Below are positions 17,358-33,529 of a DNA stretch of 38,171 bases, piece by piece. The stretch comes from a virus, in IMG/VR virus record IMGVR_UViG_3300034069_001889, positions 77,723 through 115,893 of that record; one strand, given 5' to 3'. The first letter of the stretch is position 1, and every line of letters starts with the position of its first letter. A program made the position numbers and the translations under genes. The notes under the pieces were generated by a model. The model had not been told where the DNA came from. It saw only the letters and a program-made list of their open reading frames with translations, and searched no databases.

Positions 17358-17564
17358 ATGAGAGATTTTATTCTTCAGTTTTTCGCCTACGAGCACCTCC
17401 ACAAAGATCTTCAAGAGGTTTCAAAGCCCTTCTCGGAGCTCGCCGAACTCATGTACAAGTACCTGCCTAGCAACTCGGAGCGCGCCACGTGCCTGCGTAA
17501 ACTCCTTGAGGCCAAGGACTGTGCGGTGCGCGCGCACCTCGGCGGTCATCAGAGTCGTGGATGA
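17358..17564 (+). CDS. Small helical phage protein, possibly related to the Acb2/Tad1 hairpin
   Basis: ILQFFAYEHL...VSKPF...LPSNSERATCLRKLLEAKDCAVRA; AAGGAG RBS. Confidence 0.55.
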   Translation: MRDFILQFFAYEHLHKDLQEVSKPFSELAELMYKYLPSNSERATCLRKLLEAKDCAVRAHLGGHQSRG

Positions 17565-17983
17565 AGAAAACGTACGAAATTGATACGGATGACCTAACCG
17601 AGCCGGAAGAGCAGCTGGCGTTTCTAATCAACGAGTGCGTGATCTTCTGCAACAACGGCTGGTGGGACGAGAAGTGGCCAAAAGACGCCATCTCGCTCCA
17701 CGTCAACTGCAACGACATCTTCGCGTGGGGTTGCGCCGACTCCGAAGATATTCGCTGTGGCGAGCTCAAAGATCTCACCGACCTCTATCTCAAAGACGAG
17801 GCGTGGGGTGCGGCCGTATGGTGCATTAAAAAGCGTCGCCAGATGCCCCAAGCCCCCGTGGCAAAAGACATGCGGGAGGCCGGCTACAATCTCGAAGAGT
17901 TGATTGCTACCCCTATTGACGAGATTGCGGAAAAACCCCTAGACTCAAACGTGAACGAGAAGCACCTGAGCCCGGAGACGTGA
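17561..17983 (+). CDS. Hypothetical phage protein (140 aa)
   Basis: ATGA overlap with the previous stop; VNCNDIFAWGCAD motif. Confidence 0.7.
   Translation: MKKTYEIDTDDLTEPEEQLAFLINECVIFCNNGWWDEKWPKDAISLHVNCNDIFAWGCADSEDIRCGELKDLTDLYLKDEAWGAAVWCIKKRRQMPQAPVAKDMREAGYNLEELIATPIDEIAEKPLDSNVNEKHLSPET
17916..17945 (+). promoter_or_regulatory. Sigma70-like promoter for the ncRNA at 17951
   Basis: TTGACG-18 nt-TAGACT, ending 5 nt before the first base of the terminal stem. Confidence 0.6.
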
Positions 17984-18082
17984 GTGCTTGCGCCTCACCG
18001 AGGGTAGCGATGGACACGGCTTGGCTTTGACCCTTGCACGCCCTGGAGCCTGAGCCGGAAATAGCGCGCCGGCCTCGTTCAC
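17951..18082 (+). ncRNA. Unknown structured ncRNA E (132 nt)
   Basis: Terminal stem GTGAACGAG/CTCGTTCAC. Hairpin AAGCAC/GTGCTT, helix AGGGT/ACCCT, and a 3' hairpin GCCGG-aaatagcgcg-CCGGC abutting the terminal stem. Own promoter and T8 tail. Confidence 0.7.
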
Positions 18083-18139
18083 TTTTTTTTACTCCTGTGG
18101 TCTAATGAGCCCAATCGCACAGGAGTTTTTGAAGCCACC

Positions 18140-18433
18140 ATGCTCGGCATTTACTTTGGAATCGGTTCGCTTATTTCAATGGGTTCTTATTGCTATTTAA
18201 CAATTTTAGAAACTGACGGCCATCTCTCCCGCGAAGAAGAAATGACCCTTTGGACCATTCGCAACCAACCCATTGTTGGTGCGTTCTCACTGACGGCGCT
18301 CGCCGTCTTGTGGCCGGTGGTAGTCCTTTCGGCGCTCGGCAGCATGGCCGCGCAACTCAAACACCACCTGCGTGCCTACGTCAGGGCGCGGTCAATCCGC
18401 CGTCTGCAGCGATCTCACGCCACTTCGCAATGA
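18140..18433 (+). CDS. Membrane protein (97 aa)
   Basis: Two hydrophobic segments; AGGAG upstream. Confidence 0.55.
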   Translation: MLGIYFGIGSLISMGSYCYLTILETDGHLSREEEMTLWTIRNQPIVGAFSLTALAVLWPVVVLSALGSMAAQLKHHLRAYVRARSIRRLQRSHATSQ

Positions 18434-18638
18434 GAAACGTCCGGTCCTCAAACTCCGGCCAGAACGGCGTTCCCGGGCCACTCATAGGCACGCACTGCGC
18501 GTAGATCTCGGTCGCGGTTTGAAGCTCTTCGAGCACCCGTAGACACAATTGCTCGGACGAGTAACGCCCAACCGTTTGCGTGTGAGGCGGAAACTGGTGC
18601 GTGGACGAGTACAACGTGACGATCAGTAGGTAAATCAT
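18381..18638 (-). CDS. Hypothetical protein (85 aa)
   Basis: Plausible ORF with a TTGCGT...TGcTACGGT promoter-like sequence immediately upstream. Confidence 0.5.
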   Translation of the reverse strand: MIYLLIVTLYSSTHQFPPHTQTVGRYSSEQLCLRVLEELQTATEIYAQCVPMSGPGTPFWPEFEDRTFLIAKWREIAADGGLTAP

Positions 18639-18719
18639 GCGGAAACCGTAGCACCGGGTTTTCCAAACGCAAGATTATTTAGATCCGACGCGAGAAGTCT
18701 GATACTACTTTTACTTCAT

Positions 18720-18859
18720 GGGTGCGCCAGCGCGCTATCTTTAGGGTCGGTCGGACGAGGCTGAGTTAAGGTAAAAGTTTTTACCTTAACCGGGTTGCAC
18801 GGTAAAACACGTGATGGGTAGCGAGCGGACCAAGATTCTTTAGAACGCCTGGCGTACCC
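18720..18859 (+). ncRNA. Unknown structured ncRNA F (140 nt)
   Basis: 11-bp terminal stem GGGTGCGCCAG/CTGGCGTACCC; its G-U pair favours the + strand. Internal CGCTATC/GGTAGCG helix and a 12-bp hairpin at 18765-18790. Intergenic. Confidence 0.55.
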
Positions 18860-18906
18860 GCCTTACTTTCTCGTTTTCTAGAAACAATTCACTACATTTG
18901 ATCTGA

Positions 18907-18940
18907 GGCGATAGTTTCTAACTAACTAGAAACTATCGCC
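18907..18940. repeat. 14-bp perfect inverted repeat in AT-rich intergenic DNA
   Basis: GGCGATAGTTTCTA-actaac-TAGAAACTATCGCC. Confidence 0.85.
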
Positions 18941-19001
18941 GGTTATGTTTCGTGGTTGTCTATTTAAACTAACATTAAGCCCTTAAAGTTAATTTAAACA
19001 C

Positions 19002-19661
19002 TCAATCCCTCAGCGCATGCTCCGTCACATGCCAGTCGAGCGTGTCGACCATGTAGGCCGGATTGTACCCGTGATAGCGCCCATCGAGCGCCGCGGCGTT
19101 GATCGCCTGGTAAAGGCCAAAGGCGTGCCCCGCCCCTTCGTGGATGTGCCCGCACGCGTGTACTTTAAGCATGTCCAGAGCCACCACGCGCTGCCGCAGA
19201 GTCTCTGACCCAACGTTTCCACTCGGCACCTCGTCGAGCACGTACTTCGCCGGCCCGTGCGTCACGAGCACCTGCGTGTCGTCCGGGATGTCCGCCCACT
19301 TGTTGGCCAAGATCATGTCATCGGCCATAAAGGACCAGTTGTAAAACGTAGGCGTGTAGGGCGAGAAGAAGAACGTAACGTCTCCAATTACGCGGCGTTC
19401 GTGCACGGGCAAGTCGACTCCGTGGTGCATCGCCATTTCCCTTGCCCACGCTCGTTCTTCCTCCACGACGCAGTCGTGATTTCCGGGGGAAAGAATCATA
19501 CCCTTCGGAAACTGCGCTTTCATCGATAAAAGCCAGGCGAGTTGGATCTGAAAATCCAACTTCTCGCCCCGCGGGCAAATATCGCCGCAGTGAATCAGAA
19601 GGTCGGCCGACGGCAGGTGCGGCGTATGTCCATGGGTGTCGGAGATGAATAAAATTTTCAT
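19002..19661 (-). CDS. Calcineurin-like metallophosphoesterase
   Basis: ISDTHG, HCGDI, PGNHD, LVTHGP, CGHIHE motifs. Confidence 0.93.
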   Translation of the reverse strand: MKILFISDTHGHTPHLPSADLLIHCGDICPRGEKLDFQIQLAWLLSMKAQFPKGMILSPGNHDCVVEEERAWAREMAMHHGVDLPVHERRVIGDVTFFFSPYTPTFYNWSFMADDMILANKWADIPDDTQVLVTHGPAKYVLDEVPSGNVGSETLRQRVVALDMLKVHACGHIHEGAGHAFGLYQAINAAALDGRYHGYNPAYMVDTLDWHVTEHALRD

Positions 19662-19744
19662 AATGGGCCATACCTTATTTCTTCATGGTAAACTAACTCC
19701 TGTTTTACCATAATTACCTTCAACCACCCTTCAAGGAGTATTAG

Positions 19745-20236
19745 ATGAGCGTTCTCGAAAAAGTTCAGGCGATGAAAGCCCAAGTCCAAGCACAGGTCGA
19801 TGCATTCTCGGAGATTGAGTCGGAACTCCAAGCGGCTCCCGACACGTCGGCGGTCGATGCCGATCTGACCGCGCAACTTGAAAAAGCTAAAGAGGATTCG
19901 GCGGCCCTCGTGGCCGAGCGCGATGCTCTCCGCGCCGCGATCCAGACCGAAATCGACGACCGCAAAAAAGACACCGAGCGCCTGGAAGCCACCATCGCTC
20001 CGCTTCAGCAAGCCCCGGCTCCCGTCATCCCCGACGCTCCGGCGCAAGACGCTTCGCCCGCACCCTCGGATTCGGCACCGTCCGATTCGGCTCCGTCGCA
20101 AGATGCAGCTCCCTCGCCGGATGCTCCGACCGACCTCCAGCCGGGCGTGCCCGCTGAAAATCCCGCCGAAGACCCCAGCCAACCGAAGTCGATGGCCGAC
20201 GCATCGGCCGGCAGCTCGACCCCGTTCGCGATCTAA
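19745..20236 (+). CDS. Coiled-coil protein with Pro/Ala/Ser/Asp low-complexity tail
   Basis: AAGGAG RBS; heptad pattern followed by APSDS repeats. Confidence 0.7.
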   Translation: MSVLEKVQAMKAQVQAQVDAFSEIESELQAAPDTSAVDADLTAQLEKAKEDSAALVAERDALRAAIQTEIDDRKKDTERLEATIAPLQQAPAPVIPDAPAQDASPAPSDSAPSDSAPSQDAAPSPDAPTDLQPGVPAENPAEDPSQPKSMADASAGSSTPFAI

Positions 20237-20269
20237 TTTAGGCACACACCATCCACGCGGCGCTGAATC

Positions 20270-20611
20270 TTACCGGCGCCGCGCTTTCTTTTTAGCCGTC
20301 CGGCGCACCGCTTTGACAAATGCACTAGGGTTCATCAGTAAAACCTCCGCCAGGGGCTCCTGGAGGGCGTAAATGACGTTGTGGGGGATACTGATGCCGT
20401 ACTCAAACTCGATCGCGTGAAGAAGCTCGTGAACGAAGATGTGCCGCTCTTCCCGCTTCGACATCCCACTCTTTAGCAAGATCATGCGCGATCCATTTGG
20501 ATTGTGCTTATTGATGCACTCACCAAGTTGATTCGGGTCCTCGAACTTCGGAACGTAGGCCACGAGGTAATAGACGCTTTTCTTGATTTTGATTTTGTGG
20601 GGAATGTTCAT
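20270..20611 (-). CDS. HEXXH metallopeptidase-like protein (ImmA/IrrE-like)
   Basis: IFVHELLHAIE; GAGG RBS. Confidence 0.7.
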   Translation of the reverse strand: MNIPHKIKIKKSVYYLVAYVPKFEDPNQLGECINKHNPNGSRMILLKSGMSKREERHIFVHELLHAIEFEYGISIPHNVIYALQEPLAEVLLMNPSAFVKAVRRTAKKKARRR

Positions 20612-20702
20612 GGCCCCTCATTATCGCAAATGGGGGCCCGTTCTTGAGTCCAGATTTCCGTGAAACGCCCGAAGCCGCGCTGCGGCAGCTCCCAGGCCTT
20701 TC

Positions 20703-21122
20703 CTATTGTCCGCGACCGGTGAGAATAAATTTGGCGAAGACGTACTGCGCCGTGGCCGAAAAGTCTTTGATCTTAAAAATCTCGGGCGAAAGGTCCAAAT
20801 TGACCTTTCCGTCGAGTTTATACGTGGGCAGGGTCACCGTAGCGGTCGCCGTTTTCTTGGCCGCGTCAACGGTTACGACCGTGATCGTGACGTCGCCAAA
20901 CGCCAGCACCTTCCCCACCTTCACGTTCTTCGACAAGAAGAGCGTCGGGTCCACTTTGTAATTGGCCTGAAAGGGGTAGTCCGTGGATTTAAAAAGCAGC
21001 TTGACCGTGACGTGACCCTTGACCTCAAGTTGCCCGGTGTCGGTGTCAGCCGTGTAGGTCGCGGTGCCGCTTTGAACGATGCCGTGCGGATCGAGCACGA
21101 CGGGCTGAGATACTTTACTCAT
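20703..21122 (-). CDS. Hypothetical beta-rich protein (139 aa)
   Basis: GAGGGG RBS; Thr/Val-rich strands. Confidence 0.7.
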   Translation of the reverse strand: MSKVSQPVVLDPHGIVQSGTATYTADTDTGQLEVKGHVTVKLLFKSTDYPFQANYKVDPTLFLSKNVKVGKVLAFGDVTITVVTVDAAKKTATATVTLPTYKLDGKVNLDLSPEIFKIKDFSATAQYVFAKFILTGRGQ

Positions 21123-21192
21123 TTTTTAAAAATCCCCTCTCTGGTGAACGGATAGAAGATCTCTATTCTACCGCCATCGAAGGTTTGGCGCC

Positions 21193-21444
21193 TCAAGCTT
21201 TTTCGATCGAACTCGCTGCCTCGTGTTTGCGCACGATGCCGGCGTTGGCCCAGAACATGGCCTCTTCAAGTTTATTGATTGCGGTCGAAAGCTCGGCGCA
21301 CTCCGGCACCATCTCGCACAAAACCATCGCGATGTCCTGAAGCTGCTCTCTCACCGCCTCGAATTTTGGCACCATCGCGGGCTCGGGCTCTTGGTAAGTA
21401 AATCTAGAATGGATCTCTTTGAGAGTCTCAGCGTGCTTATACAA
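21193..21444 (-). CDS. Acb2/Tad1-like helical hairpin protein (putative anti-defence nucleotide sponge)
   Basis: RFTYQEP...KFEAVRE...PECAELSTAINKLEEAMFWANAGIVR resembles the KLEEA-x-x-W hairpin of Tad1/Acb2-like proteins. Confidence 0.6.
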   Translation of the reverse strand: MYKHAETLKEIHSRFTYQEPEPAMVPKFEAVREQLQDIAMVLCEMVPECAELSTAINKLEEAMFWANAGIVRKHEAASSIEKA

Positions 21445-21457
21445 ATGAATTTGTTCC

Positions 21458-22006
21458 TTAATCGTGACGGTCTTTCAGTGATTTCAATACGCCGCACCAG
21501 GAACGCTTCTCTTTTGTTTTCCCGAAGTATGGGTAAGCTAACCCACGCTTGAGCAAAAACTCCCCCAGCGAATGCCCATCATACCGAACATCGGCAACAA
21601 TACGGAAATATTTGTCGGGGCGAACGTTCAGGAGATCTATGCGGCGCGCGCCTTTCAGCTCCTTTTCGACGGCCACGCGGGCAAAGTCCGAGACCTCGGC
21701 CTCGCAGGGGCCTACGCCGTGAAGTTCCGGGGCATCGACACCATCGACGCGAATGTGCGCGTTTTGCCCAAAAAAAGGGTGCACCTTCGGAATCTCGACC
21801 GAAAACGTGTCGGCATCGTGACAGGTTTTGAATTTAACGCAATGAAACGCTTTCGCCTCATGCTCGCAATAGCTCCCCGTGGCCAGTGTCGCAATAGCCG
21901 CGGCGAAGATGTGTGACGGAGAATCCGAACCAGACGTCTTGGCCCAAGCACCCCCGGCCGGTAAAAATAGACTCAACGAGGCAAAAGTCACGAACGCCCA
22001 AAACAC
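21458..22006 (-). CDS. Thermonuclease (SNase-like) with signal peptide
   Basis: DADTF, IRVDGVDAPE, DKYFRIVADV, LLKRGLAYPY; hydrophobic N-terminus ending AWA. Confidence 0.88.
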   Translation of the reverse strand: MFWAFVTFASLSLFLPAGGAWAKTSGSDSPSHIFAAAIATLATGSYCEHEAKAFHCVKFKTCHDADTFSVEIPKVHPFFGQNAHIRVDGVDAPELHGVGPCEAEVSDFARVAVEKELKGARRIDLLNVRPDKYFRIVADVRYDGHSLGEFLLKRGLAYPYFGKTKEKRSWCGVLKSLKDRHD

Positions 22007-22104
22007 GCTACTGTTTCTCCCTTGACAGGTTTACAGTAGAGTAGGAAATTTTTTCCCAGTCAAGGGGAACTGGGTCAACATGGCTCATCATGGGAGGCCT
22101 TAAG

Positions 22105-22236
22105 ATGTTTTTTAAAGTATGCATTTTGACCACTATCGCTGTTTCAGCAACCCTGGCGCTCCTCACGGTCGCCACCGCGTCCACCATCATCACGATCGCC
22201 TTCGATCAGTACATCCGCCCGCTCATCGTCGGGTAA
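22105..22236 (+). CDS. Small single-pass membrane protein (43 aa), not in ORF track
   Basis: GGAGG RBS; MFFKVCILTTIAVSATLALLTVATASTIITIAFDQYIRPLIVG. Confidence 0.5.
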   Translation: MFFKVCILTTIAVSATLALLTVATASTIITIAFDQYIRPLIVG

Positions 22237-22256
22237 AAGAAACGAGCCTGAACAGT

Positions 22257-23219
22257 ATGATCAATGTCGTCCACATCACGGAAAATCCCATCGCCGGCGC
22301 GCCCTACAATCTTCACCACGCGCTCAACAAATACCAGGGCGACAAGGTTCGCTCGCGGCACATCGCCTACAGCGACCGGAACGAGAACCGGATCTTTCCG
22401 CACGACATCATCATCGACAAAACGTCGTACCAGGCCCTCCGCGACGTCCTGGAGGCGGCCGACGTCATCCACCTCCACAACTTTTGGAAGAACCAGCACC
22501 TCTTTCGCACTTACCCCGACCTCTGGCCGATCGTGATGCGAAAGCCCCGCGTCTGGCAGGTGCACACGCAAAGAGACGTGAAATGGGTTTCGATGGAAGA
22601 TGGCATCAATGACAAGGGTGCCAAACACCTCGTCATCGCTCAGTACCACCCGCGGCAGTATCCAGAGTGCCAGGTCGTTCCAAACATCATCGACATCTTC
22701 GAGCCGAAGTACATGCCGATCGTTCGCGACAACACGCCCGCGCGCGTCGTCTACAGCCCGAGCCGCAACCGCGCGCACGGCTGGGAATCAAAAGGGTACT
22801 CGGAAACGCTGCCCGTCTTGCAAAGACTCGTCGACGAGAGGGTGTGCTCGGCCGACCTCATCTTCAACCAACCCCACGCCGCCTGCATGGCCCGCAAAGC
22901 AAAGGGCGACATCGGAATTGACGAGATCGTGACGGGCTCTTATCACCTCTGTAGTCTTGAAACGCTTTCACTTGGCCTTGTCACGCTCGCCGGACTCGAT
23001 GATCTTCAAATCAACACCCTGAAAGATTTGACCGGATCCGCAAAGCTGCCCTGGATTATAACGACGCCGGATACACTCGAAGAAAATTTACGTAAACTGA
23101 TCTCGGCGAACAAAGATGATCTTAAGGCCATTCAAGAGTTTTCACGAACTTGGATGGAGATGTACTGGCACCCGAAGGTCACGACCGAGCACTTCGTAAA
23201 AATTTACGAGAGCCTCTGA
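22257..23219 (+). CDS. Glycosyltransferase (GT-B/GT4-like)
   Basis: INVVHIT, ADVIHLHN, VVPNIID, ESKG, GSYHLCSLETLSLG (divergent EX7E region). Start taken at MINVV. Confidence 0.7.
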   Translation: MINVVHITENPIAGAPYNLHHALNKYQGDKVRSRHIAYSDRNENRIFPHDIIIDKTSYQALRDVLEAADVIHLHNFWKNQHLFRTYPDLWPIVMRKPRVWQVHTQRDVKWVSMEDGINDKGAKHLVIAQYHPRQYPECQVVPNIIDIFEPKYMPIVRDNTPARVVYSPSRNRAHGWESKGYSETLPVLQRLVDERVCSADLIFNQPHAACMARKAKGDIGIDEIVTGSYHLCSLETLSLGLVTLAGLDDLQINTLKDLTGSAKLPWIITTPDTLEENLRKLISANKDDLKAIQEFSRTWMEMYWHPKVTTEHFVKIYESL

Positions 23220-23220
23220 G

Positions 23221-23993
23221 ATGTGGCAAGTATTCAGCATTCCGAAGAAAGAGAAACTGGTGGAGAAAAAAGTAAACGTGCGCAGACTCGTTCGCGACCT
23301 CATGCATCAGCAGGGGTTGATTGGCTCATCCTTCGCAGACCCAATCGACAGCGTAGCGGCCGAGCGACTTGGCGTGGCCTGCTACCACGCCAACGATCAG
23401 CAGCACCTCAAAGATCGTATTTTTGAGCTCGAAGAGATCGTCCACGATCGCCTAGTTCTTTCCATGAATGGTTTTGCCGGGGCGAACGTCGATGAGCCCT
23501 CGCCCGGAGACTTAAAGCGCGTTCTCGATGCCTACTACATTTGCCACGCCGAAAGAGAATCGCTCAAACGTCGCAACGACAAACTTGTCAAAGAGGTTGA
23601 GTCATACAAACAACTCGCCAACATTGGCGCCGGCAAAGCTTCGGCCTACAAAGCGCTCGGCGACAACCTCGTCCGAGCTATCAAAAAAGTGGCGGATGCC
23701 GTGCACGAATACGATAAACTGGATCAATGGAAAGACTCGGCGGAGAAATAGACACGTGCGTCTACTATGTCTTATTTTATTTAGCTACCTCGGCCATGTT
23801 CTACGTCATGGTTGGCGGTCTCCACGACGAGGAGCACCAGGGCCCTACCCGGAGTGGCTACACGTTACTCCTGGCTCTCGTCTGGCCTTTGATCTTGCCC
23901 GTGCAGCTGATCGCGTGGGGGACGCAGATGATTGGTAAGTCGGGCTCCATTTTTATTGGTAGAATCATCCGATACCTCACCAAGGAGAAATAG
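23221..23993 (+). CDS. Two hypothetical proteins (23221-23751 coiled-coil; 23727-23993 membrane)
   Basis: Consecutive, tightly packed ORFs. Confidence 0.55.
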
Positions 23994-24794
23994 ATGATTA
24001 TGTTTAAAGGTCGCAAGTTTAACTACCGCTGGGCCGAAAAAGACGACCGCGATTTTCCGTTCAAACACATCATGCGGCTCTCGCACCTGCCAAAGCTGCC
24101 GGAAGAAGTCGATCTCACCAAAGAATCCTTTTACCCGCCCGTCTGGGACCAGGGCGAACAGGGCTCCTGCACGGCCCAGGCCGCGTGCGCCGTCAAAACG
24201 TTCATTACGCGCCGCTACGTGCCGCACCAGGACGATTTGAGCATCGACGGCTTTTACTGGTGCGAGCGCTTCGTCGACGGCAACACGCTCCTCGACTCCG
24301 GGTCCGACGGCCGCACGTCCGGTAAAGTCATGCTTGAGACCGGCGTGGGCTCGGCCAAGATCTGGGGCTACGACGATTCCCACTTTCTGAAGGAGCCGCC
24401 GAAGGAGTACTTCGAAGACGCCAACAAGAACAAGATCGGGGCCTTTTACTTCCTCCACGGGCGAATCCAAATGCAGCGCTGCCTCGCGGCGGGCTTTCCC
24501 TTCGTCTTTGGAACTTACATCCCGTGTCAAATGATGGCCGACGATTTCAACGGAATCCTCGACAATTGCTCGACGAACGATATGCTCGTCGAAGACGGGG
24601 GCCTGGCCGGCCACCAGATGTCTTGCTTCGGGTACAAAAAGATCAACGGCAAGTTGTTCTTCAAAGTCCGCAACAGCTGGGGCACCGACTGGTGCGACGG
24701 CGGGCACTTCTGGTATTCGGCCGACATGATGACCAACCCCGATTGGTGTGACGACGCAATCACCTACCGATTGGCCAGAGAGCCGGGGATTTAG
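23994..24794 (+). CDS. Papain-like (C1 family) cysteine peptidase
   Basis: WDQGEQGSCTA, GHQMSCFGY, VRNSWGTDWCDGGHF; AAGGAG RBS. Confidence 0.92.
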   Translation: MIMFKGRKFNYRWAEKDDRDFPFKHIMRLSHLPKLPEEVDLTKESFYPPVWDQGEQGSCTAQAACAVKTFITRRYVPHQDDLSIDGFYWCERFVDGNTLLDSGSDGRTSGKVMLETGVGSAKIWGYDDSHFLKEPPKEYFEDANKNKIGAFYFLHGRIQMQRCLAAGFPFVFGTYIPCQMMADDFNGILDNCSTNDMLVEDGGLAGHQMSCFGYKKINGKLFFKVRNSWGTDWCDGGHFWYSADMMTNPDWCDDAITYRLAREPGI

Positions 24795-24795
24795 A

Positions 24796-26365
24796 TGGCG
24801 AGAGCTAGTAAGCCGCAGTACCAATGGAACACACGGGCGCTCCTCCTCTGGGCGCTCGTCCTCGCCGCGGGGTATTCATTTTACGAATGGACGGGGCTCG
24901 GCACGGCCTGCCTCTTTCTCGTCGTGATGCAGTTGGTTTGACCGTATGGAATGGGAGATTCAATTTATGAAGTTCGTGTGGGAAAAGCTTTGCGCCGTCC
25001 GGCCCACGGTCTATTTTGGATTGGTCGGTTTGACCATCACGAGCGCGGCCATTGCGGAGCTCGCCGGCGACGGATGGGGTTGGTTGTTCTTTGGGCTCGT
25101 GGTCCTGGTGATGGCCGGCTCACTGAACGAATCTGAATTTACCGAGCGGAAGTAGGGCATTCGTGAGGCTCTCAAAGATTGAGATTCTCGTGGCGGCCGG
25201 AATCGTTGTCGTTCTACTCACGATTGTCGCAATCACGAGTCTTTACGGCTGCCCCGCGGGTGAATGCTTGGAAGAGCGCGAAGACGGAAGCACCGCCATG
25301 TGCGCGGGCTACACGCCCGAAGGCATGTGCATTGGTTACGTGTTTTCGCCAAATTACACGTGCGTGAAGCGCGCCGCGCCTCCATACTGTCGGCCCAAAG
25401 GTCTATCGCGCTGGAAGCTCACGCGCGAAGGCGATGAATACTAAACAAGGAAACTCATGGCCGGATCGTACAAACATATTGTCAATAGTGACAACACTTT
25501 CATCGGTGTGCGTCTTCTCGATCATTTGGGCGACGCCTGGGGTGCGCTCGAAGAGTGTCACTGGATGATCAAATATCTTGCCGGCGGCGACCTCAGCAAA
25601 ATTTTTGAAGCACACCGCGCCTACGTCGCTGCGCCCGACGGTTGCAATAATCCTGATTACGCGGCCAAAATGAGTGCACGCAATTATTGGGGCGACAAAG
25701 AAGACGATGTAGATTTGGAGGATGGCAATGACTGAGGAAGAATCTGACAAATACGCAAAAGGCCTCGAAGACATCATCGACAAACTCGTCGAAAAGGTGA
25801 ATAGCCGTGGCGCGCGGGGCGACCGCCTCGCCAAACGTTTAGAACGCTTTGCGCACCGTCAGGACGCCCTCGACGGATGGGTTGCGGATGAAATCAGGGC
25901 TGCTATTTCCGAATTCCGCGCGGGCAAGCACGGAGATCAACAATGAAGCTCTTTGGCTACGTGATCGTTAAAAAAGAAGAGCTCGAAGAAATTCACGACA
26001 TGGCGTTGAAATACAACAACCTCGCCACGTACTGGCACTGGTTTCACCACTGGACGGATTTGCGTCTCGTGCTGCGCGGCTTCGTGAACGAAGAGCTCAA
26101 TGGCAACACCGTGATGGAAATCCGTAAGCAAGTGGCCAAGCTCCGCCAAACCGACGAGTGGGGCTTCCCGACGCCGCTCTCCGTCGGAGAGTCGCGGATC
26201 GTTGAAAAAAACGAGGAGTTTGTGAAGCGCATTACCGCGGCCATCGAGTACACTCTTCGGGGGGCCGGCTATACGGAAGAGCGCGTTCAGTTTCTCATGA
26301 CGTGTATTTGGGCCAAGGCCGACAAACTCAAAGAAACGGTTCGGGTCGAAAGGCCTAAGATTTGA
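24796..26365 (+). CDS. Train of small hypothetical/membrane ORFs (24796-24942, 24946-25155, 25163-25444, 25457-25735, 25722-25946, 25943-26365)
   Basis: Head-to-tail packing with short gaps or overlaps; the first three are hydrophobic. Confidence 0.6.
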
Positions 26366-26673
26366 GCAAAATGATCGACGGCAACACATCAGACGGCCAC
26401 CACACGTTTAACGAGCTCTACGACCACCGCTGCATGCTCTTCATCCGGCTTTGCCTGCGGGACGTTCCGCACGCCGCCTGGAAGCATCACCTCGACGACT
26501 GGTTTTTGTTGTACCTGGAGTTACCGGAAGGGCAGATCAGCTACCACTGCCCGGTCAAGTACCTGCACTTCGTGGAAGACAAAATCAAGCAAGTGCCGCA
26601 CTACAACTACGACGGCCACAACAGCGAACAGGTGTTGGAGCGGCTGATGGGACAAGGGAAAAACTGTGACTGA
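26362..26673 (+). CDS. WDGH-like phage domain protein
   Basis: SDGHHTFNELYDHRCMLF...GQISYH...YDGH. Confidence 0.65.
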   Translation: MSKMIDGNTSDGHHTFNELYDHRCMLFIRLCLRDVPHAAWKHHLDDWFLLYLELPEGQISYHCPVKYLHFVEDKIKQVPHYNYDGHNSEQVLERLMGQGKNCD

Positions 26674-27174
26674 GCGTCCAAAATGGTTTTACGTGCCTGT
26701 CGTGAATAAAAATGAATCTTATGGCGGGTACGCGGACAGCGAAGAATGTTTGAAGACGCACGGCTCCGCCCAGCTCGTCTGCGACCACCTGTTTCTCGAC
26801 GAAGTGCAAGACCTCAAGGACGTTTTAGAAAGTGAGCGGAAAGCCTCTGAAGGGCTCTACGCCGTCCTGACGCACGCGACCGAACTCGGCTACCTCGGTG
26901 AAGGCTCAACGGCGGGGTGGGTCCAGGAGATGCTGACAAATTACGAAGCCGTAAAGTACAAACGCTGATGGAAGATTTTTGTGGCGTCGTTATAACGGTG
27001 ACAATGGGTTTTGCCATAATTTTTGGCACCTACAAGTGCGTGAACGCACCTTCGACGGCGGAATTGATTTACGCCGACTGTGTTGCGGACGGGGGCAAGC
27101 GGCTCGATTGCCGCAAAGAAGCTTTGAAAATCCAGCAACACACGCCCTGCACCGGGTGTCGGACGTCTGACTAA
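26666..27174 (+). CDS. Two hypothetical proteins (26666-26968; 26968-27174, membrane-anchored and Cys-rich)
   Basis: Overlapping start/stop codons. Confidence 0.6.
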
Positions 27175-27386
27175 CCAACGCTCGTGCGGTTGGCCGCGAG
27201 CACCCGCACGCGTTCTTTGAGCGCCTTGATGTCGTCTTCCATTTTTTCGGTCTGCTTCCGGTGAGCGACGTGCTCTTTACGCCTGATGCCGACCGTGCTC
27301 AAGGCTTTGCCGATCTCAAAATTCCGGGCGTGCCAGGTGATGATCGCCCCCAAAATTACGCCCGCGCCTACGTATAATGCGTCCAT
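27171..27386 (-). CDS. Small TM plus coiled-coil protein (71 aa)
   Basis: MDALYVGAGVILGAIITW...MEDDIKALKERVRVL. Confidence 0.55.
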   Translation of the reverse strand: MDALYVGAGVILGAIITWHARNFEIGKALSTVGIRRKEHVAHRKQTEKMEDDIKALKERVRVLAANRTSVG

Positions 27387-27426
27387 AGGGCTAGATTTTA
27401 CATAGATTCTCAAGTAGTGTCCATAA

Positions 27427-27606
27427 TGACTGATGAGGCGTGGAAGCGGGGTGCTGGCTTAAAAACCGGTCGCTCACGATCCCTGGAACACGCACTGTAG
27501 CCGTGATAGGTCCTCCGGGGTGTCGTTACCACGAAGAAGCTTTAGGGCGGGACGGTAAGGAAGCGGCGCAAACGGAATTGCCAGAGTCGCGCCTGGCCAT
27601 TGGTCA
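27427..27606 (+). ncRNA. Unknown structured ncRNA A (180 nt)
   Basis: Terminal stem TGACTGATG/CATTGGTCA (2 G-U). 5' GCGTggAAGC motif and 3' hairpin GCCAG-agtcgcgc-CTGGC. Ends 5 nt before tRNA-Met. Confidence 0.7.
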
Positions 27607-27611
27607 TTTGA

Positions 27612-27682
27612 CGCGGGTTGGAGGAGTGGTCCCTTGCTAGGTTCATACCCTGGAGACGTCGGTTCGAACCCGGCACCCGCTA
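27612..27682 (+). tRNA. tRNA-Met(CAU), initiator-like
   Basis: Cloverleaf; anticodon arm CTAGG-ttCATac-CCTGG; GGTTCGAAC T loop; C1:U72 mismatch; no encoded CCA. Confidence 0.88.
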
Positions 27683-27699
27683 CTTTGATTTGTTTTTAT

Positions 27700-28075
27700 G
27701 GGGGCATACTGGTTTCGACACGGGACCAAGACGCTCGCCTGCACGCCGGGGATGAATTCGAACCCCGTTATCAAACGAGTTCACATGTACATGGCGAATC
27801 GCAAGATTTCTCCATGAAAAACGCTGCCTAGACAGCAGTGATTTTTCGGGGCACGCAGCCTGGCAACAGAACGCGCAACAAGAGGAAACGCAGCCGCACC
27901 TCTTTAAATTAGGCGGAACCCGGTTGCCAGACCGGGACTAACAAAACTGGATGGTGGAGAGCGTACGAAGCTTAGCCGTTTCGTACCCCATGTAGGTTCC
28001 GTCTCACGGAACTAAGCGTGTAGAGGGTGAGTGATCAAAGTTTTGTGGACGAGGGTTCGATCCCCTCTGCCTCCA
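27700..28075 (+). ncRNA. ssrA: tmRNA
   Basis: 5' GGGGGCATACTGGTTTCGAC; 3' GGACGAGGGTTCGATCCCCTCTGCCTCCA with a G3-U70 pair. Tag frame 27793-27831 reads GESQDFSMKNAA-stop. Confidence 0.93.
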
Positions 28076-28093
28076 CTTTTTGTTTTTGTTTGT

Positions 28094-28169
28094 TGGTCGG
28101 TACCATAATTGGCAATGGGCCAAACTGTTAATTTGGAATATGGAAGTTCGAGGCTTCCCCGGCCAACCA
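28094..28169 (+). tRNA. tRNA-Asn(GUU)
   Basis: CCAAA-ctGTTaa-TTTGG; acceptor TGGTCGG/CCGGCCA; ACCA end. Confidence 0.9.
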
Positions 28170-28176
28170 TTTTTTT

Positions 28177-28248
28177 GGGTCTGTAGTTTAAACGGTAGAA
28201 TGCCGGATTCCAAATCCGGTGATCGAGGTTCGAATCCTTGCGGGCCCG
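28177..28248 (+). tRNA. tRNA-Trp(CCA)
   Basis: CCGGA-ttCCAaa-TCCGG; GGTTCGAATCC; G discriminator. Confidence 0.9.
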
Positions 28249-28258
28249 CAGTTTTTAT

Positions 28259-28347
28259 GGAAAGTTGGCAGAGTGGTCTATCGCGCCCGCCTTGAAAGCG
28301 GGAGGACCTTGAAAGAGGTTCCGTGGGTTCGAATCCTACACTTTCCT
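28259..28347 (+). tRNA. tRNA-Ser(UGA)
   Basis: CCCGC-ctTGAaa-GCGGG; long variable arm; acceptor GGAAAGT/ACTTTCC. Confidence 0.92.
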
Positions 28348-28369
28348 CAGTTTTATAGAAGGAGCAACT

Positions 28370-28540
28370 ATGGAAAATAGAAAAGTCATTCAGCTCACCA
28401 TTTCGGCTCCAAACGTCAATGACCCCGACCGAGTGTTTCCGATTCTGTTTGCTTTATGCGATGACGGCACCATCTGGTGGTCAAACGTCAGCAATGAATC
28501 TGAAAATTGGCAGCTGTACAAACAAGTTCCTACATCTTAA
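28370..28540 (+). CDS. Small hypothetical protein (56 aa) inside the tRNA cluster, not in ORF track
   Basis: AAGGAG RBS; MENRKVIQLTISAPN...LFALCDDGTIWW...W. Confidence 0.7.
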   Translation: MENRKVIQLTISAPNVNDPDRVFPILFALCDDGTIWWSNVSNESENWQLYKQVPTS

Positions 28541-28553
28541 ATCTCTTTCTTAC

Positions 28554-28630
28554 GCGGTTATAGTTCAGAGGCCTAGAACGCTCGCCTGTCACGCGAGAGG
28601 TCACGAGTTCGAATCTCGTTAGCCGCGCCA
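28554..28630 (+). tRNA. tRNA-Asp(GUC)
   Basis: CTCGC-ctGTCac-GCGAG; GCCA end. Confidence 0.93.
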
Positions 28631-28637
28631 TTTTTAT

Positions 28638-28901
28638 TTGCTTATGACCGTCACCTACACCAAATCCGAAGCCCTCCTAATCAAGTACTTTCGCGACCTC
28701 CTCCAAGATTTGTGGGATGAGGGTATGAATACCAAGAAAGACCCCGAGGACCGTCTCGCCGCGCTCGTGATAAAAATCAATGGCGCACTGACCCTAGCCA
28801 ACGTCATGGCGGACGAGACAGAATTTGGGAAATTCATCACGTACCTCAAGGAGACTCACAATGATAACGATCAAAGACGAAAGCCAACGGGTACCGATTA
28901 A
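28638..28901 (+). CDS. Hypothetical protein (about 85 aa)
   Basis: ORF between tRNA-Asp and rtcB, overlapping the rtcB start. Confidence 0.55.
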   Translation: MLMTVTYTKSEALLIKYFRDLLQDLWDEGMNTKKDPEDRLAALVIKINGALTLANVMADETEFGKFITYLKETHNDNDQRRKPTGTD

Positions 28902-30042
28902 ACTCTGGGCCGACGAGGTCGAGCCCCAGGCCATGGCCCAGCTCAAGAACACGGCCGGCCTTCCCTTCGTGTTCAAACACGTCGCCGCCATGCCGGACGT
29001 GCACTTTGGCCTTGGCGCCACCGTGGGCTCCGTCGTCGCGACCAAGGGCGCGGTCGTACCCGCGGCGGTGGGGGTCGACATCGGATGCGGCATGATGGCG
29101 GTTCAGCTCGACGCGGACGTGCGCATCGCGCGCGATAAGGCCGCGGTCATCCGCCACTCGATCGAGCGGTCCATACCCGTAGGATTCGACCAGCACCGGA
29201 CAAATCAAGACGAAGAGATGGGACTGCTTCACCTGACCTGGGCCGACATTGCGTCCGAGAATGCCGACAAACGTCTTTATGAAAAAGCAGCGCGGCAGAT
29301 GGGCACGCTCGGGGGCGGCAATCACTTTATTGAGCTCTGCGAGGACACGAACGGTGGCTTCTGGGTCATGCTCCACTCCGGGTCCCGCGGCGTCGGGAAC
29401 CGACTCGCCCGCTGGCACATGAACGAGGCTAAAGGCCTCATGCGGAAGATGTTCATCGAGCTGCCGGACCCCGACCTCGCCTACTTTGCCGAACAAACCA
29501 AAGAGTACGATGCCTACATGACGGACCTTTATTGGGCGCAAAATTACGCGAAGCGAAATCGCGAGGTCATGATGGAGCGGGTCCTCAAAGACATCTCCCA
29601 CGCCTTCGGCCTCGGCGGCGCCCCCATTCCAAAGCTCCGCGAGATCAACTGCCACCACAACTACGCCGAGACGGAAAACCACTACGGCGAGAACGTGCTG
29701 GTCACCCGAAAAGGCGCCGTACGGGCCCGGGAGGGCGATTACGGCATCATTCCCGGCTCCATGGGGACGCGGTCTTACATCGTGAAGGGAAAGGGCAACT
29801 TCCAGAGCTTCTGCTCCTGCAGCCACGGCGCGGGGCGTAAGATGTCCCGGAACCAAGCGCGCGCCCAATACACGGTTGAGGATCTGGCCAAGCAGACCGA
29901 AGGGGTCAACTGTCGGAAAGACGAGGGGGTTCTCGACGAGCTGCCCTCGGCGTACAAAGACATCGACACCGTCATGGCGAATCAGCAGGACCTGGTCGAG
30001 GTCGTGGCCGAGCTCAAGCAATTCGTTTGCATTAAGGGCTAA
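28861..30042 (+). CDS. rtcB: RtcB RNA ligase (3'-phosphate/5'-OH)
   Basis: MPDVH, VGVDIGCG, GTLGGGNHFIE, HSGSRG, CHHNY, RKGA, IPGSMG, SHGAGR, AYKDI; AAGGAG RBS. Confidence 0.97.
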   Translation: MITIKDESQRVPIKLWADEVEPQAMAQLKNTAGLPFVFKHVAAMPDVHFGLGATVGSVVATKGAVVPAAVGVDIGCGMMAVQLDADVRIARDKAAVIRHSIERSIPVGFDQHRTNQDEEMGLLHLTWADIASENADKRLYEKAARQMGTLGGGNHFIELCEDTNGGFWVMLHSGSRGVGNRLARWHMNEAKGLMRKMFIELPDPDLAYFAEQTKEYDAYMTDLYWAQNYAKRNREVMMERVLKDISHAFGLGGAPIPKLREINCHHNYAETENHYGENVLVTRKGAVRAREGDYGIIPGSMGTRSYIVKGKGNFQSFCSCSHGAGRKMSRNQARAQYTVEDLAKQTEGVNCRKDEGVLDELPSAYKDIDTVMANQQDLVEVVAELKQFVCIKG

Positions 30043-30047
30043 CGAAG

Positions 30048-30084
30048 TTAGGGAATGTTAGTCAGACGGGCTAACATTCCCTAA
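30048..30084. repeat. 14-bp perfect inverted repeat between rtcB and ncRNA B
   Basis: TTAGGGAATGTTAG-9nt-CTAACATTCCCTAA; no T tail. Confidence 0.85.
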
Positions 30085-30107
30085 TATTATCTGATAGACC
30101 TAATATC

Positions 30108-30335
30108 GAACGTGATTGCGTATAAGCTGTGGCAATTGCTAATGCCCGCACAATGCGACTTCGAGGACCCTCACTGGCAAGGTTGTGTCTGAAAAGCGGG
30201 GCCACTAGGATACGTAGGTCGGTTAGGACCGAAAGAGTACTGAGACGAATATAATGGTGAATTGACACCTGCCCTAACGGGTATTCGCGAGTCGGGAAAT
30301 CTCTTTCACAACCGGAGTCGCGCCCGGTCACGTTC
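30108..30335 (+). ncRNA. Unknown structured ncRNA B (228 nt)
   Basis: Terminal stem GAACGTG/CACGTTC. 5' GCGTatAAGC motif and 3' hairpin ACCGG-agtcgcgc-CCGGT. Ends 5 nt before tRNA-Phe. Confidence 0.75.
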
Positions 30336-30340
30336 TTTAT

Positions 30341-30416
30341 GGACAGGTAGCTCAGTTGGTAGAGCACCGGTTTGAAGCGCCGGGTGTGGTAGGTTCAACT
30401 CCTACCCTGTCCACCA
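30341..30416 (+). tRNA. tRNA-Phe(GAA)
   Basis: CCGGT-ttGAAgc-GCCGG; acceptor GGACAGG/CCTGTCC; ACCA end. Confidence 0.92.
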
Positions 30417-30428
30417 TTTTACATTTCT

Positions 30429-30525
30429 GGAACGTGGCTCGTGTCCAAGAGGCTCCGGCCGGTGCGCACCGGTACAGGATGAGGGATTAAGTCGGCGCCG
30501 CCCAACCCGTAAACGGCCACGTTCT
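30429..30525 (+). ncRNA. Unknown structured ncRNA C (97 nt)
   Basis: Terminal stem GGAACGTGGC/GCCACGTTCT; internal CCGGT-gcgc-ACCGG hairpin; long T run after. Confidence 0.65.
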
Positions 30526-30589
30526 TTTTTTTCTTACTAATTAATTAAATTACTTAGACAGAGTCGGACTGATTTGCTTAATTAATTAC

Positions 30590-30814
30590 GAACGTGAAGC
30601 GTGAAGCAAGTCCCCGACGTAGAAGCGTTGATGCTGATCTAAGCCCGGATACGTACAAAGACACGAAGGGTAAAATCAGCGGAGTGGAGAAGGTTGCTAA
30701 TGCGCGCACTCTGACCTTGCACGCATGGACAGAGTTCAAAAGGCCGCTTGATGCCGGTTCGAAACGGCTAGTACAGTGGAATAATGAAAGCCAGGGTTGC
30801 GCCTGGTCACGTTC
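30590..30814 (+). ncRNA. Unknown structured ncRNA D (225 nt)
   Basis: Terminal stem GAACGTG/CACGTTC. 5' GCGTgAAGC motif and 3' hairpin GCCAG-ggttgcgc-CTGGT. Ends 11 nt before tRNA-Tyr. Confidence 0.75.
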
Positions 30815-30825
30815 AACTTTTTTAC

Positions 30826-30911
30826 GCGTTGTTGCGGGGAATTGGTAACCCAGCGGATTGTAAATCCGTGCCCTCACGGGTCTGGTGGTTCGAGTCCATC
30901 ACAACGCACCA
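30826..30911 (+). tRNA. tRNA-Tyr(GUA)
   Basis: GCGGA-ttGTAaa-TCCGT; long variable arm; ACCA end. Confidence 0.92.
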
Positions 30912-30914
30912 TTT

Positions 30915-30988
30915 TCGGGATTGGTGCATCGGTAGCACGTCAGACTTTGATTCTGAAGAGCGAGGTTCGATTCCTTGATCCCGAGCCA
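30915..30988 (+). tRNA. tRNA-Gln(UUG)
   Basis: TCAGA-ctTTGat-TCTGA; acceptor TCGGGAT/ATCCCGA; GCCA end. Confidence 0.92.
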
Positions 30989-31203: not shown

Positions 31204-33529
31204 GTGAAACTCGTCTGCTACCACAAAGAGTGGGATTGGATCGCGGTTCACGAAGGTGCTTACGCGGTTGAAGTCGACGACGGGGTGTTTTGGTTTTGGT
31301 CGCACTACCTGACATTTCCCGGTGGCTCGTACATGCTCACCGATAAGGATTTCTACAAAAACTGGGTCCTGATCGGTATTCTGGATAAGGAGGAAAACAA
31401 TGAAAACATTTGATCTGGTTCGCACCGAGGACGTGAGCGGCGTTTCAGGAATTGGCACTGTGGCTCAAGGCGTCGAGTTTGACGATGGCTCGTGCGTGCT
31501 CCGCTGGCTCACCGAGTTCAAAAGCACGGCGTTTTATAACTCCGTCCGGGACTTGCTTCACATCCACGAACACGGCGGCCGCACAAAAGTCGTCTTTCAC
31601 GAGGAGATCAAATGACGTCGCGCGACTTTTGCTACTGGCTCCAAGGGTTTTTCGAACTCGCCCACTCTGGCCCCGTTCCGCCCGAACCGCAGTCCCGCTA
31701 CCATCTGTACGACTACCAAGTCGACATGATCCGCAACCACCTCGCCATGGTGTTCAAGCACGAGATCGACCCTAGCATGGGCAGCGCTATTCACCGCGAC
31801 CAGCTTCAGCAAATCCACCATGGTTATGTTCAAGCTCAAGAGATCGAAAACAAAGCCGAAGCTTGCTTGGACAGATCCGGGAAGTTTAGCCCCACCGCCA
31901 AGATGAACTGCTGACACCACCCGTCTAGTTTTACCATTTGCCTTGATCCTCCATTTTTGATCCGTAATTCTATGGACCAACCAATGGAGGATCATCAACA
32001 TGGATCTCATCGAATTCCCCTGCCCCGACTGCACGACCGGCCTCGGCCAGGTCCCCCTTTTCGACATTTTCAAACCCACGTGCCCGACCTGCAACGGCAA
32101 ACGTAAAGTTCTCGTCAAACGCGAAGACATCATCAAGCTCGGGGGCAAATAGGCTTATGAGAAAGCCGAAGCGCCGTTACGCCATCGAACACGTCACCAT
32201 CAACAAAACGACCGCGGAATTGGTCATCGTCCTTCCCGTGCAGCTGATGTTTGAGCCGGAAGCCTTCACGGTTCCGGGCGTGGGCGAAGGAGCGCCGGAA
32301 ATCGAATACAGCCTTCAGGTCGGGACAAACGAGCCCGACGGCTATCTGGTGCCCGTCGAGACGTTTGCTAATCGAGACATTTACGTCTTTTGTAAGACCT
32401 CGCGGCTCAAGAAAATCGCCGACATCCTGGGGCCGCTATGATGCGGTGGCTTTTTGGCGACCCCTACCGCTTGATCAGCGATGGTCACGGCAAGTGGGCG
32501 GTCCAGAACACGAGGTGGGGTCTCTTTGGCGACAGCTACTGGGACTTTCAAAACGAATTCTGGACCCTGTACCCTCGTGAAAAATGTTGGACGGACGTAG
32601 AAACCGCCACGCTTTGGGCCAAGAGGTTCAACGCATGACGAGTCCAAAGCAAAAAGCTAGCGCCTACGTCTACGTGATCTCGCGGATTCACAAAGCGCCG
32701 ACCCCAAATATTACCGAGATCCCGAACCTCGGCGTGCACCGAACGCTCAAACGCGGGTTGTCGCACTACAAGGCCGTCTACGAGGATCGTCGGTCGCGGA
32801 TCACGAGTTCTTATGGCGAACAGGATAAGGTTGTCACCGACCATCCCTGCACGGTCCTCGCTGAGTTTTACACGAGCGACCAAGAAAATGTGCGTTTCGA
32901 ACGCTGGACGGTTTACTAAGTATGAAACCACTCACAGCCAAAAAACTGGGGAAGCAGAGCAATTCGGTGGTCTACCTTGCCAAGTACGACATGATTGTCG
33001 AAGTGTGGTGCCACCAAAGGTTGAAATTCATGCTGCACGATCAGGACAGATGGTACATCAAGGGGCCGCTCGGCATGAACGGTCAGATCACTTTAAAAGA
33101 ACTCAATAGCGCGAGTGCTATCAAAATAGGAGTAATTCACTAATGTACAGCAAATACGCACCTCCCGTTTCGGAAATCAAGAAATGGATCAGCGCCCTTC
33201 GTTCGGGCAAATTCCAACAAACTCAAGGAGTGCTTCAAGACAGGGATGGCTACTGCTGCCTTGGCGTAGCGTGCCAAATTTTCTCGCCCAAACACCAGCT
33301 CGAAAGAAACGGGCAATATCTTCGCGGCAGTATGCCAAGTGATCAGCGTCACGCGCCAACCTGGCTCAAACGCGTCGCCAATGATTTCGCTCGCGCCACT
33401 AAAATTGTTCACGAGGATGGCGATAACGAGGTCACAGGCCTCATCGACATGAACGACGAGGAAAACTTCTCGTTCGACGAGATCGCCGACATGCTGCAGC
33501 TGGTCTACGTCGAAAAGGCGTTCGCGTGA
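31204..33529 (+). CDS. Train of small phage hypothetical proteins (31204-31413, 31400-31615, 31612-31914, 32000-32152 CxxC zinc finger, 32157-32441, 32438-32638, 32635-32919, 32922-33143, 33143-33529)
   Basis: Overlapping start/stop codons and RBSs. Motifs I recall from uncharacterised phage proteins: DVSGVSGIGTVAQGVEF, DFCYWLQGFFE, WISALRSG...CCLGV. Confidence 0.7.

Follow-up and report, generated by a model that had tools for sequence, protein, structure and literature searches.

The final 38 kb of a 115,893-bp phage contig from IMG/VR (record IMGVR_UViG_3300034069_001889; completeness estimate 74%) carry an island of RNA genes, in which eight tRNA genes and one tmRNA gene are found at 27.6-31.0 kb and an rtcB gene (393 aa in the database copy) lies among the tRNA genes. 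Positions are those of this stretch of 38,171 nucleotides, hereafter the window. Islands of phage tRNA genes have now been connected with the evasion of host nucleases directed at tRNAs, which they cut. A preliminary description of the window singled out six putative non-coding RNA (ncRNA) elements, A to F, and proposed that they share short sequence words, or modules, in shuffled order. Here, these elements and their words are considered in the light of a family of tRNA-shaped RNAs, of which A, B and D are members.

The elements are bounded by terminal stems, which in B, C and D start with GAACGTG and end with CACGTTC. Six such sites occur in 30108-30814, all of them paired at the termini of these three elements; in the whole window, the 7-mer is found twelve times. 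The main features are listed below, with P1 standing for the closing stem and P2, P3 and P5 for inner helices.

A, 27427..27609, + strand: canonical member; P1 UGACUGAUG/CAUUGGUCA; 5' box AGGCGUGGAAGC; middle box CCUGGAACACGC; P5 GCCAG-AGUCGCGC-CUGGC
B, 30108..30335, + strand: diverged member; P1 GAACGUG/CACGUUC; 5' box UGCGUAU-AAGC; P3 GUGGC/GCCAC; P2 3' strand AUACGUA; P5 ACCGG-AGUCGCGC-CCGGU
C, 30430..30524, + strand: short element just past tRNA-Phe; same closing stem, GAACGUGGC/GCCACGUUC; small stacked hairpin; T8 tail
D, 30590..30814, + strand: diverged member; P1 GAACGUG/CACGUUC; 5' box GCGUG-AAGC; P5 GCCAG-GGUUGCGC-CUGGU; T6 tail
E, 17951-18087, then T8 (to 18095), + strand: closing stem GUGAACGAG/CUCGUUCAC; stacked hairpin GCCGG-(10 nt)-CCGGC
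F, around 18816: intergenic; no family feature; not part of the RNA set
tRNA/tmRNA island, 27612..30988, + strand: tRNA-Met, tmRNA, tRNA-Asn, Trp, Ser, Asp, Phe, Tyr and Gln
tRNA-Met, 27612-27683: gene call
rtcB (RNA 3'-phosphate/5'-OH ligase), 28861..30042, + strand: Pfam RtcB, E=3.6e-124; directly upstream of B

Three elements lie immediately before a tRNA gene: A ends 2 nt before tRNA-Met, B 5 nt before tRNA-Phe and D 11 nt before tRNA-Tyr, and the tmRNA gene is found 90 nt downstream of A. Both A and B have weak T tails, which run straight into the tRNA gene. The short element C looks like a terminator and is not detectably a member of the family; its hairpin consists of a mere 3 bp closed by a tetraloop, and its 3' end is identical to that of B at 13 of 14 positions. 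Element E lies 12.6 kb from D, the first 33 nt overlapping the end of an open reading frame (ORF, 17561-17983), and its stem (GAACGAG/CUCGUUC) differs from GAACGUG/CACGUUC by one compensatory pair. Two strong hairpins were found in F, at 18767-18790 and at 18907-18940 (stem of 14 bp in the latter). The genes on either side are convergent or divergent, and terminators are the simplest explanation for both hairpins.

Just 5' of their closing stems, B and E have the sequence TAGAC-N8-GAACG in common (30087-30112 and 17940-17957), with upstream boxes TTGACG-18-TAGACT in E and CTAACA-18-TAGACC in B. This shared sequence may be a common promoter that would put the start of the transcript at P1. Within 30136-30260, B also holds three words, GCCCGCACAA, GAATTGAC and ATACGTAGGT, which may correspond to words of bacterial 16S rRNA; the Rfam small-subunit rRNA models gave no hit at E values up to 10.

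A family of tRNA-shaped RNAs

Seventeen copies of the family were found, namely A, B and D together with 14 foreign ones from 12 viral or metagenome loci, and they have a common scaffold. From 5' to 3', it consists of P1 (7-10 bp), a 2-nt joint, the 5' box, an optional arm P3, the middle box, a variable region, P5 and the 3' strand of P1, usually with a U-rich tail. The 5' box, two nucleotides past P1, is GCGUG followed by G(G)AA(A)GC, and the middle box is (C)UGGA(A/GA) followed by CACGC, which pairs back to GCGUG as P2; the P2 strands enclose a conserved internal loop and the optional arm P3. The insert that follows is hypervariable, with a length of 22 to ~115 nt. P5 (GCCRG-AGUCGCGC-CYGGC) is a 5-bp stem with an 8-nt loop that stacks directly on the 3' strand of P1. 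This 3' hairpin, with its loop RGUYGCGC abutting the closing stem, is common to A, B and D, and its counterpart in E has a 10-nt loop. The pair formed by the 5' box and the middle box is complete in A and not recognisable in E and C.

Foreign copies were sought by an exact scan of IMG/VR with a 19-nt pattern for the 3' box, then by blastn, and then by a scan of metagenomes. The IMG/VR scan returned 18 loci, five of which had the same architecture as A; blastn added a second copy in locus L100 and one in L037, the latter between two tRNA genes and ~700 nt upstream of an rtcB; and the metagenome scan contributed seven further copies. A tRNA gene was found at a distance of 200 nt or less for 6 of the 17 copies. 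The two diverged copies of L100 are 2.3 kb apart (8666-8856 and 11009-11206), so the carriage of multiple copies is not unique to this phage. The smallest member, L307:902-977, has the form of a four-arm cloverleaf in 76 nt, and the inner domain of the copy in L292 scored 31.9 bits on the Rfam tRNA model, above the threshold. In this last locus (L292:2031-2113, - strand), the variable insert holds a near-complete tRNA-like domain, with a D-arm, an expanded anticodon arm and a canonical GGUUCGAAUCC T-arm; at the equivalent place, D has a T-loop-like hairpin, GCCGGUUCGAAACGGC (~30753-30768).

A scan of bacterial genomes (one per species) with the 3' box gave 106 matching stretches. Of the 80 loci returned and examined, not one combined the two upstream boxes, so these matches look like chance. 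Loose descriptor scans gave matches at background level and also picked up true tRNAs, and a descriptor made of P1, the joint and P5 is likewise satisfied by real tRNAs. Apart from the inner tRNA-like domain of L292, no Rfam 15 family matched A to E or six of the foreign copies, at the gathering threshold or at E values up to 10. Neither ARAGORN nor the Rfam tRNA model called a tRNA on A to E, even at E values up to 10. These copies represent a well-delimited, covarying, tRNA-shaped family of phage RNAs, new in the sense of being absent from Rfam.

The place of B and D in this family was established with covariance models. The model R3, built from five foreign copies and A, was run unfiltered on the whole window and recovered D at full length (25.3 bits, E=2.3e-4), aligning GCGUG at 30599-30603 with CACGC at 30720-30724 as P2, as well as B at full length (20.3 bits, E=3.2e-3). 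The boundaries of both were exactly those deduced from the terminal stems, the next, unrelated match in the window reached 9.7 bits, and a run over the whole contig returned A, D and B and nothing else. R2, built from two foreign copies only, detected A at 23.6 bits (E=5e-4); R1, made from two 5' domains, was too narrow to inform. The constant scaffold proposed in the preliminary description is thereby borne out for the closing stem, the 5' box and the stacked 3' hairpin, since a model based on five foreign copies and A recovers B and D from end to end. F, with neither a family feature nor a match to R3, is not part of the set.

Across nine copies, P1 was paired at 100%, with compensatory changes in 5 of 7 pairs, and its covariation score was 0.449, as compared to 0.129 in shuffles (0/500) and to at most 0.07 in slid-partner controls. 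This result bears on the idea that the elements are DNA or transcription cassettes that punctuate the tRNA operon. Their ends would then act as promoter-proximal or terminator signals, or would belong, as inverted repeats, to small mobile elements, and their interiors would be unconstrained spacers. Such cassettes would account for the identical 7-nt inverted repeats on B, C and D, for the stem followed by a T-run at the ends of elements (T8 after C and E, T6 after D), for the shared TAGAC-N8-GAACG upstream of B and E with TTGACG-18-TAGACT at E, and for the sporadic occurrence of the family among phages, a related phage (G001, see below) having none. However, the covariation of P1 across phages indicates that pairing is selected, not sequence, and a terminator function leaves the conserved internal boxes and the P5 loop unexplained. 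Promoter-like sites are at the level of shuffles, the weak tails of A and B are followed at once by a tRNA, and the flanks of B, C and D have no target-site duplications. Overall, cassettes are an improbable explanation. A miniature inverted-repeat mobile element was considered for B, C and D, which share their ends, and was rejected, as their flanks are not duplicated and the ends covary across phages.

Shared words and their order in B, D and E

All five pairs of words reported in the preliminary description are present exactly where it placed them. They are listed here with the segments that hold them, all on the + strand.

16-mer TTGCTAATGC(C/G)CGCAC: B 30136-30151 and D 30694-30709
B copy of the 16-mer, TTGCTAATGCCCGCAC, 30136..30151: starts 2 nt past the P3 5' strand GUGGC
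D copy of the 16-mer, TTGCTAATGCGCGCAC, 30694..30709: GUGG-AGAAGG directly before it
9-mer GGATACGTA: B 30208-30216 and D 30647-30655; in B, the internal-loop GGA and the P2 3' strand
CT(G/A)AGCCCGGA(G/T)ACGT: E 17966-17981 and D 30639-30654
Middle-box-like segment of D, CTAAGCCCGGATACGTA, 30639..30655: holds the 9-mer; common to D and E
Same segment in E, CTGAGCCCGGAGACGT, 17966..17981: GGAGAC similar to the foreign middle box CUGGAGACACGC
TGACC(C)TTGCACGC: E 18028-18041 and D 30712-30724
D copy, TGACCTTGCACGC, 30712..30724: family middle box by homology (compare UGACCUGGAACACGC in L100); CACGC complements the 5' box GCGUG
E copy, TGACCCTTGCACGC, 18028..18041: collinear with the D copy
E-F word GGGTAGCGA: E 18002 and F 18816 (18816..18824); chance match

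Their significance was assessed on the interiors of the elements, with the shared termini removed, using 300 dinucleotide shuffles for each of the 15 element pairs. The 16-mer of B and D (p<0.003) and the two words of D and E (p=0.013 for the first, p<0.003 for the second) were above chance. The 9-mer, scored as the second-best match of B and D, was marginal, with p=0.03 for one of 15 pairs and an analytic chance of ~0.18 for any shared 9-mer. The E-F word was at chance level (p=0.13), as were all remaining pairs. A second control relied on the DNA of the same genome, all 200-nt windows of the 116-kb contig being scored by the sum of their two best matches: the B-D value exceeded all 2428 control windows, and the D-E value was equalled by 2 of 2429. 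Since shuffles and nearly all genome windows were exceeded, the relationships between B and D and between D and E are considered genuine. The earlier claim that elements more than 12 kb apart are linked into one system stands for D and E, with four collinear matches above chance; the link between E and F falls. Elsewhere in this contig, the 16-mer had no counterpart at up to 2 mismatches. When IMG/VR was scanned for exact occurrences of the D/E word plus GGGTA, the 50 hits all lay in coding DNA, without a non-coding match.

The four matches of E and D are the 5' end, the two interior words and the 3' end, and the two elements are collinear throughout. E is, judged by its sequence, a compact collinear paralogue or relative of D. 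The mapped order of B and D is P1, the 5' box, an extra sub-domain in D, the GUGG motif that precedes the 16-mer in both, the 16-mer, the P2 3' strand, the 3' domain, P5 and P1. Both ends and the 16-mer are collinear in the two elements. As initially noticed, the 9-mer does lie on opposite sides of the 16-mer in B and D, and it is the only word out of place. It is also the weakest of the eight matches above chance (p=0.03), and the only one of them that breaks collinearity.

The structural assignment of the words offers an explanation for this exception. The minimum-energy fold of B contains P2 (UGCGUAU/AUACGUA, 7 bp) and P3 (GUGGC/GCCAC), with pair probabilities of ~0.48, and these helices differ from the consensus GCGUG/CACGC by paired changes (compensated GCGUAU/AUACGU). 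Because of this fold, GGATACGTA in B is assigned to the internal-loop GGA and the P2 3' strand, a 9-mer that changes together with the altered 5' box of this element. In D, TGACCTTGCACGC resembles the canonical middle box UGACCUGGAACACGC of L100, and R3 pairs its CACGC with GCGUG. A second middle-box-like segment, CTRAGCCCGGAKACGT, is common to D and E (compare CUGGAGACACGC in L099, L286, L292 and L093) and carries the 9-mer of D. On this mapping, the 9-mer is a middle-box variant carried by D in an extra copy, and the apparent inversion would arise because the single middle box of B was compared with this extra copy. The words are predicted to be conserved boxes and helix strands, together with remnants of intragenomic duplication (the 16-mer). 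What was seen as a combinatorial set of shuffled modules, as opposed to duplication, is most likely ordinary gene-family divergence for the greater part, with D and E collinear and B and D collinear except for the least significant word; a shuffled code of recognition motifs is not established. Several words would be helix strands of one architecture and not free-standing protein recognition sites. A nested duplication of the P2 unit in D (ACGUA-GAAGC...CGGA-UACGU) was attractive in sequence, but it costs 12 kcal/mol, has zero ensemble probability and was not relied on.

Another complementarity was noted in D, whose 5' region GTGAAGCAAGTCCCCGACGTAG (30601-30622) matches the complement of the + strand at 31540-31561 in 20 of 22 positions. 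The target lies inside a real gene (31400-31615; phrog_7499, E=5e-26) and is the best match of the D interior contig-wide (score 34; mean 16.4, sd 2.4). With a rough chance estimate of ~0.01-0.04, it may be an antisense target or a relic.

Taken together, we favour the view that A, B and D are diverged paralogues of one phage-borne family of tRNA-shaped ncRNAs and E a compact relative of D, C being less certain with its closing stem only, and give it a probability of about 0.65. Several observations weigh against it. R3 found no match in E, C or F in the unfiltered scan, and the misses of E and C count here, D being the sole tie of E to the set. Covariation was scored on an alignment that had been fitted to the model, and P2, which hardly varies and so has no covariation of its own, rests on conservation. 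R3 places the P2 3' strand of B at 30245, a weaker partner, and not at the 9-mer. In the thermodynamic ensemble of D, the 5' box (GCGUG-AAGCAA) pairs with the 16-mer at 0.75-0.97 and with CACGC at only 0.01, leaving the P2 partner of D ambiguous; should the ensemble prove correct for this element, there would be a real swap of structural roles between the 16-mer and the 9-mer from B to D. The scan for sigma-70 promoters was at background or shuffle level, none of the proteins encoded by 52 ORFs flanking the foreign copies recurs as a partner, and the collections searched yielded no orthologue of B, D or E.

Some of these observations would also fit a true modular shuffling, in which independent protein or nuclease recognition motifs on a constant scaffold are exchanged and reordered between copies. 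The opposite order of the 16-mer and the 9-mer, a summed B-D score beyond every one of the genome control windows, the mosaic of identical blocks within otherwise unalignable interiors, the pairing of the 5' box with the 16-mer in D (0.75) and with the 9-mer in B (0.48), and a hypervariable insert that can hold a tRNA-like domain, as in L292, all point in this direction. On the other hand, a single match in eight is out of order, and it is the one with p=0.03 and an analytic chance of ~0.18; D and E are fully collinear and E-F is a chance link; several words are strands of the common architecture; and neither a non-coding IMG/VR match to the exact D/E pattern nor another copy of the 16-mer in the contig was found. 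Reordering of this kind is therefore judged unlikely.

The ambiguous partner of the D 5' box also raises the prospect of a conformational switch, either riboswitch-like or driven by a chaperone, in which the 5' box would choose between mutually exclusive partners (the 16-mer and the segments with GGAUACGU and CACGC) and the modules would be alternative strands. GCGUG of D can pair with CACGC (5 Watson-Crick pairs), with CGCGC of the 16-mer (0.75) or with UACGU, forcing the CACGC pairing costs only 3.6 kcal/mol, and A has two candidate partners as well (CACGC at 27489 and CCACG at 27529). Yet short GC-rich complements easily arise by chance, and the 12 kcal/mol needed for the nested alternative in D tells against it; we consider a switch doubtful. 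Coincidence, with the words as compositional accidents among unrelated intergenic sequences, would suit the E-F word (p=0.13), ten other element pairs at chance level and the marginal 9-mer, but it is very improbable and already refuted for B-D and D-E, which exceed shuffles and nearly all genome windows, with R3 detecting B and D at E values of 3e-3 or lower.

Relatives, known RNA systems and possible roles

Searches for related phages gave no close relative of this phage in the collections searched. Megablast against phage sequences in GenBank gave no match, and a helicase search found no relatives. Among 57 IMG/VR loci with an RtcB, at up to 55% identity, none contained the words and only L037 held a family copy; against 5.8 billion proteins, the best RtcB match reached 68% identity, on non-syntenic contigs. 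The fused RNA polymerase pointed to one distant relative, G001 (59% identity), which has a tmRNA and six tRNAs but neither rtcB nor a family copy. In this 175-kb genome, the interval between the tmRNA and the block of six tRNAs (L071:8202-9069) is a coding stretch of ~170 codons, not structured RNAs. Two of the IMG/VR rtcB loci (L005 and L053) represent another phage with rtcB within an array of 29 tRNA genes and several unexplained gaps of 90-180 nt; R3 found no family copy in this array.

Several known RNAs deserve comparison. Salmonella YrlA is encoded beside rtcB. Like the present family, YrlA and other bacterial Y RNAs are ncRNAs of ~80-230 nt found in bacteria and phages; they mimic tRNA, as this family may do. 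The two differ in that the RNA ends form a Ro-binding stem there and an acceptor-like stem here, and in that the T-like loop of this family has 8 nt (AGUCGCGC) and is not TΨC. YrlA RNAs are recognised by the Ro-binding motif GNCGAAN0-1G, by D- and T-arms of canonical form and by a gene for Ro60 (TROVE) no more than ~4 kb away, and a 7-bp acceptor-like stem makes some of them substrates of RNase P (Chen et al. 2014, PMC4201824). No TROVE gene was matched in the 116-kb contig (74% complete), in a search in which the positive controls worked, and inspection of the elements revealed no GNCGAAN0-1G motif, their 5' boxes being GGCGUGGAAGC, UGCGUAUAAGC, GCGUGAAGC and ACGAGAAGC. With neither the gene nor the motif, a Y RNA identity was rejected. 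A hammerhead, suggested by a CUGAUGA word in A, was dismissed because the other members lack it.

The tRNA-like domain of tmRNA offers another parallel: there, too, the 5' and 3' ends pair to give an acceptor-like stem, a hairpin stacks on its 3' strand, and a large insert lies in between. Unlike tmRNA, the elements have no tag reading frame, encoded CCA or canonical T-loop, and neither the Rfam tmRNA model nor ARAGORN matched them. Among phages, the tRNA cluster of T4 also encodes species 1 and 2 (rnaC and rnaD), two small stable RNAs with no assigned function that are freed by the enzymes of tRNA processing; this family is likened to them by description only. GOLLD and ROOL, phage structured RNAs of 500-800 nt and unknown function that often lie beside tRNA genes, are in Rfam; their architectures are unrelated to this family, and Rfam gave no match here. 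A catalogue of structured RNAs built from the same data source, IMG/VR, includes thousands of unnamed phage RNAs, some of them tRNA-like (PMC10690425). The likeness of that catalogue to the present family, which is not in Rfam 15, is one of description only.

On the favoured reading, the RNAs would be transcribed from the + strand, and the three that lie just upstream of a tRNA gene may be co-transcribed with that tRNA and released by tRNA-processing enzymes. P1 would be analogous to the acceptor stem, on which P5 would stack as the T-arm does, and the resulting minihelix might allow these RNAs to be handled or bound by proteins that recognise tRNAs. They could act as tRNA mimics, either decoys or regulators, in an island devoted to tRNA, tmRNA and RtcB functions in translation and repair, a functional guess to which we give somewhat less than even odds. 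A bolder proposal, which we hold to be rather unlikely, is that of a natural tRNA scaffold, in which the host tRNA machinery would deal with a constant module of acceptor stem and T-arm, and this module would display cargo domains open to exchange, along with alternative strands for pairing. The phage would thus keep, beside its tRNA, tmRNA and RtcB repair genes, a small panel of different decoys or switches against host defences that target tRNAs. If so, the tRNA-like domain of L292 and the 16-mer and middle-box variants of this phage would be cargo, and the role swap of the 16-mer and the 9-mer between B and D would be a real exchange of modules.

For this phage, the proposed code of shuffled motifs is largely reduced to ordinary paralogy, which puts a stop to a false lead. 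A tRNA mimic encoded within a phage tRNA island is a candidate decoy or regulator of processing, and the family shows how, in nature, one fixed RNA scaffold can accommodate inserts of very different kinds.

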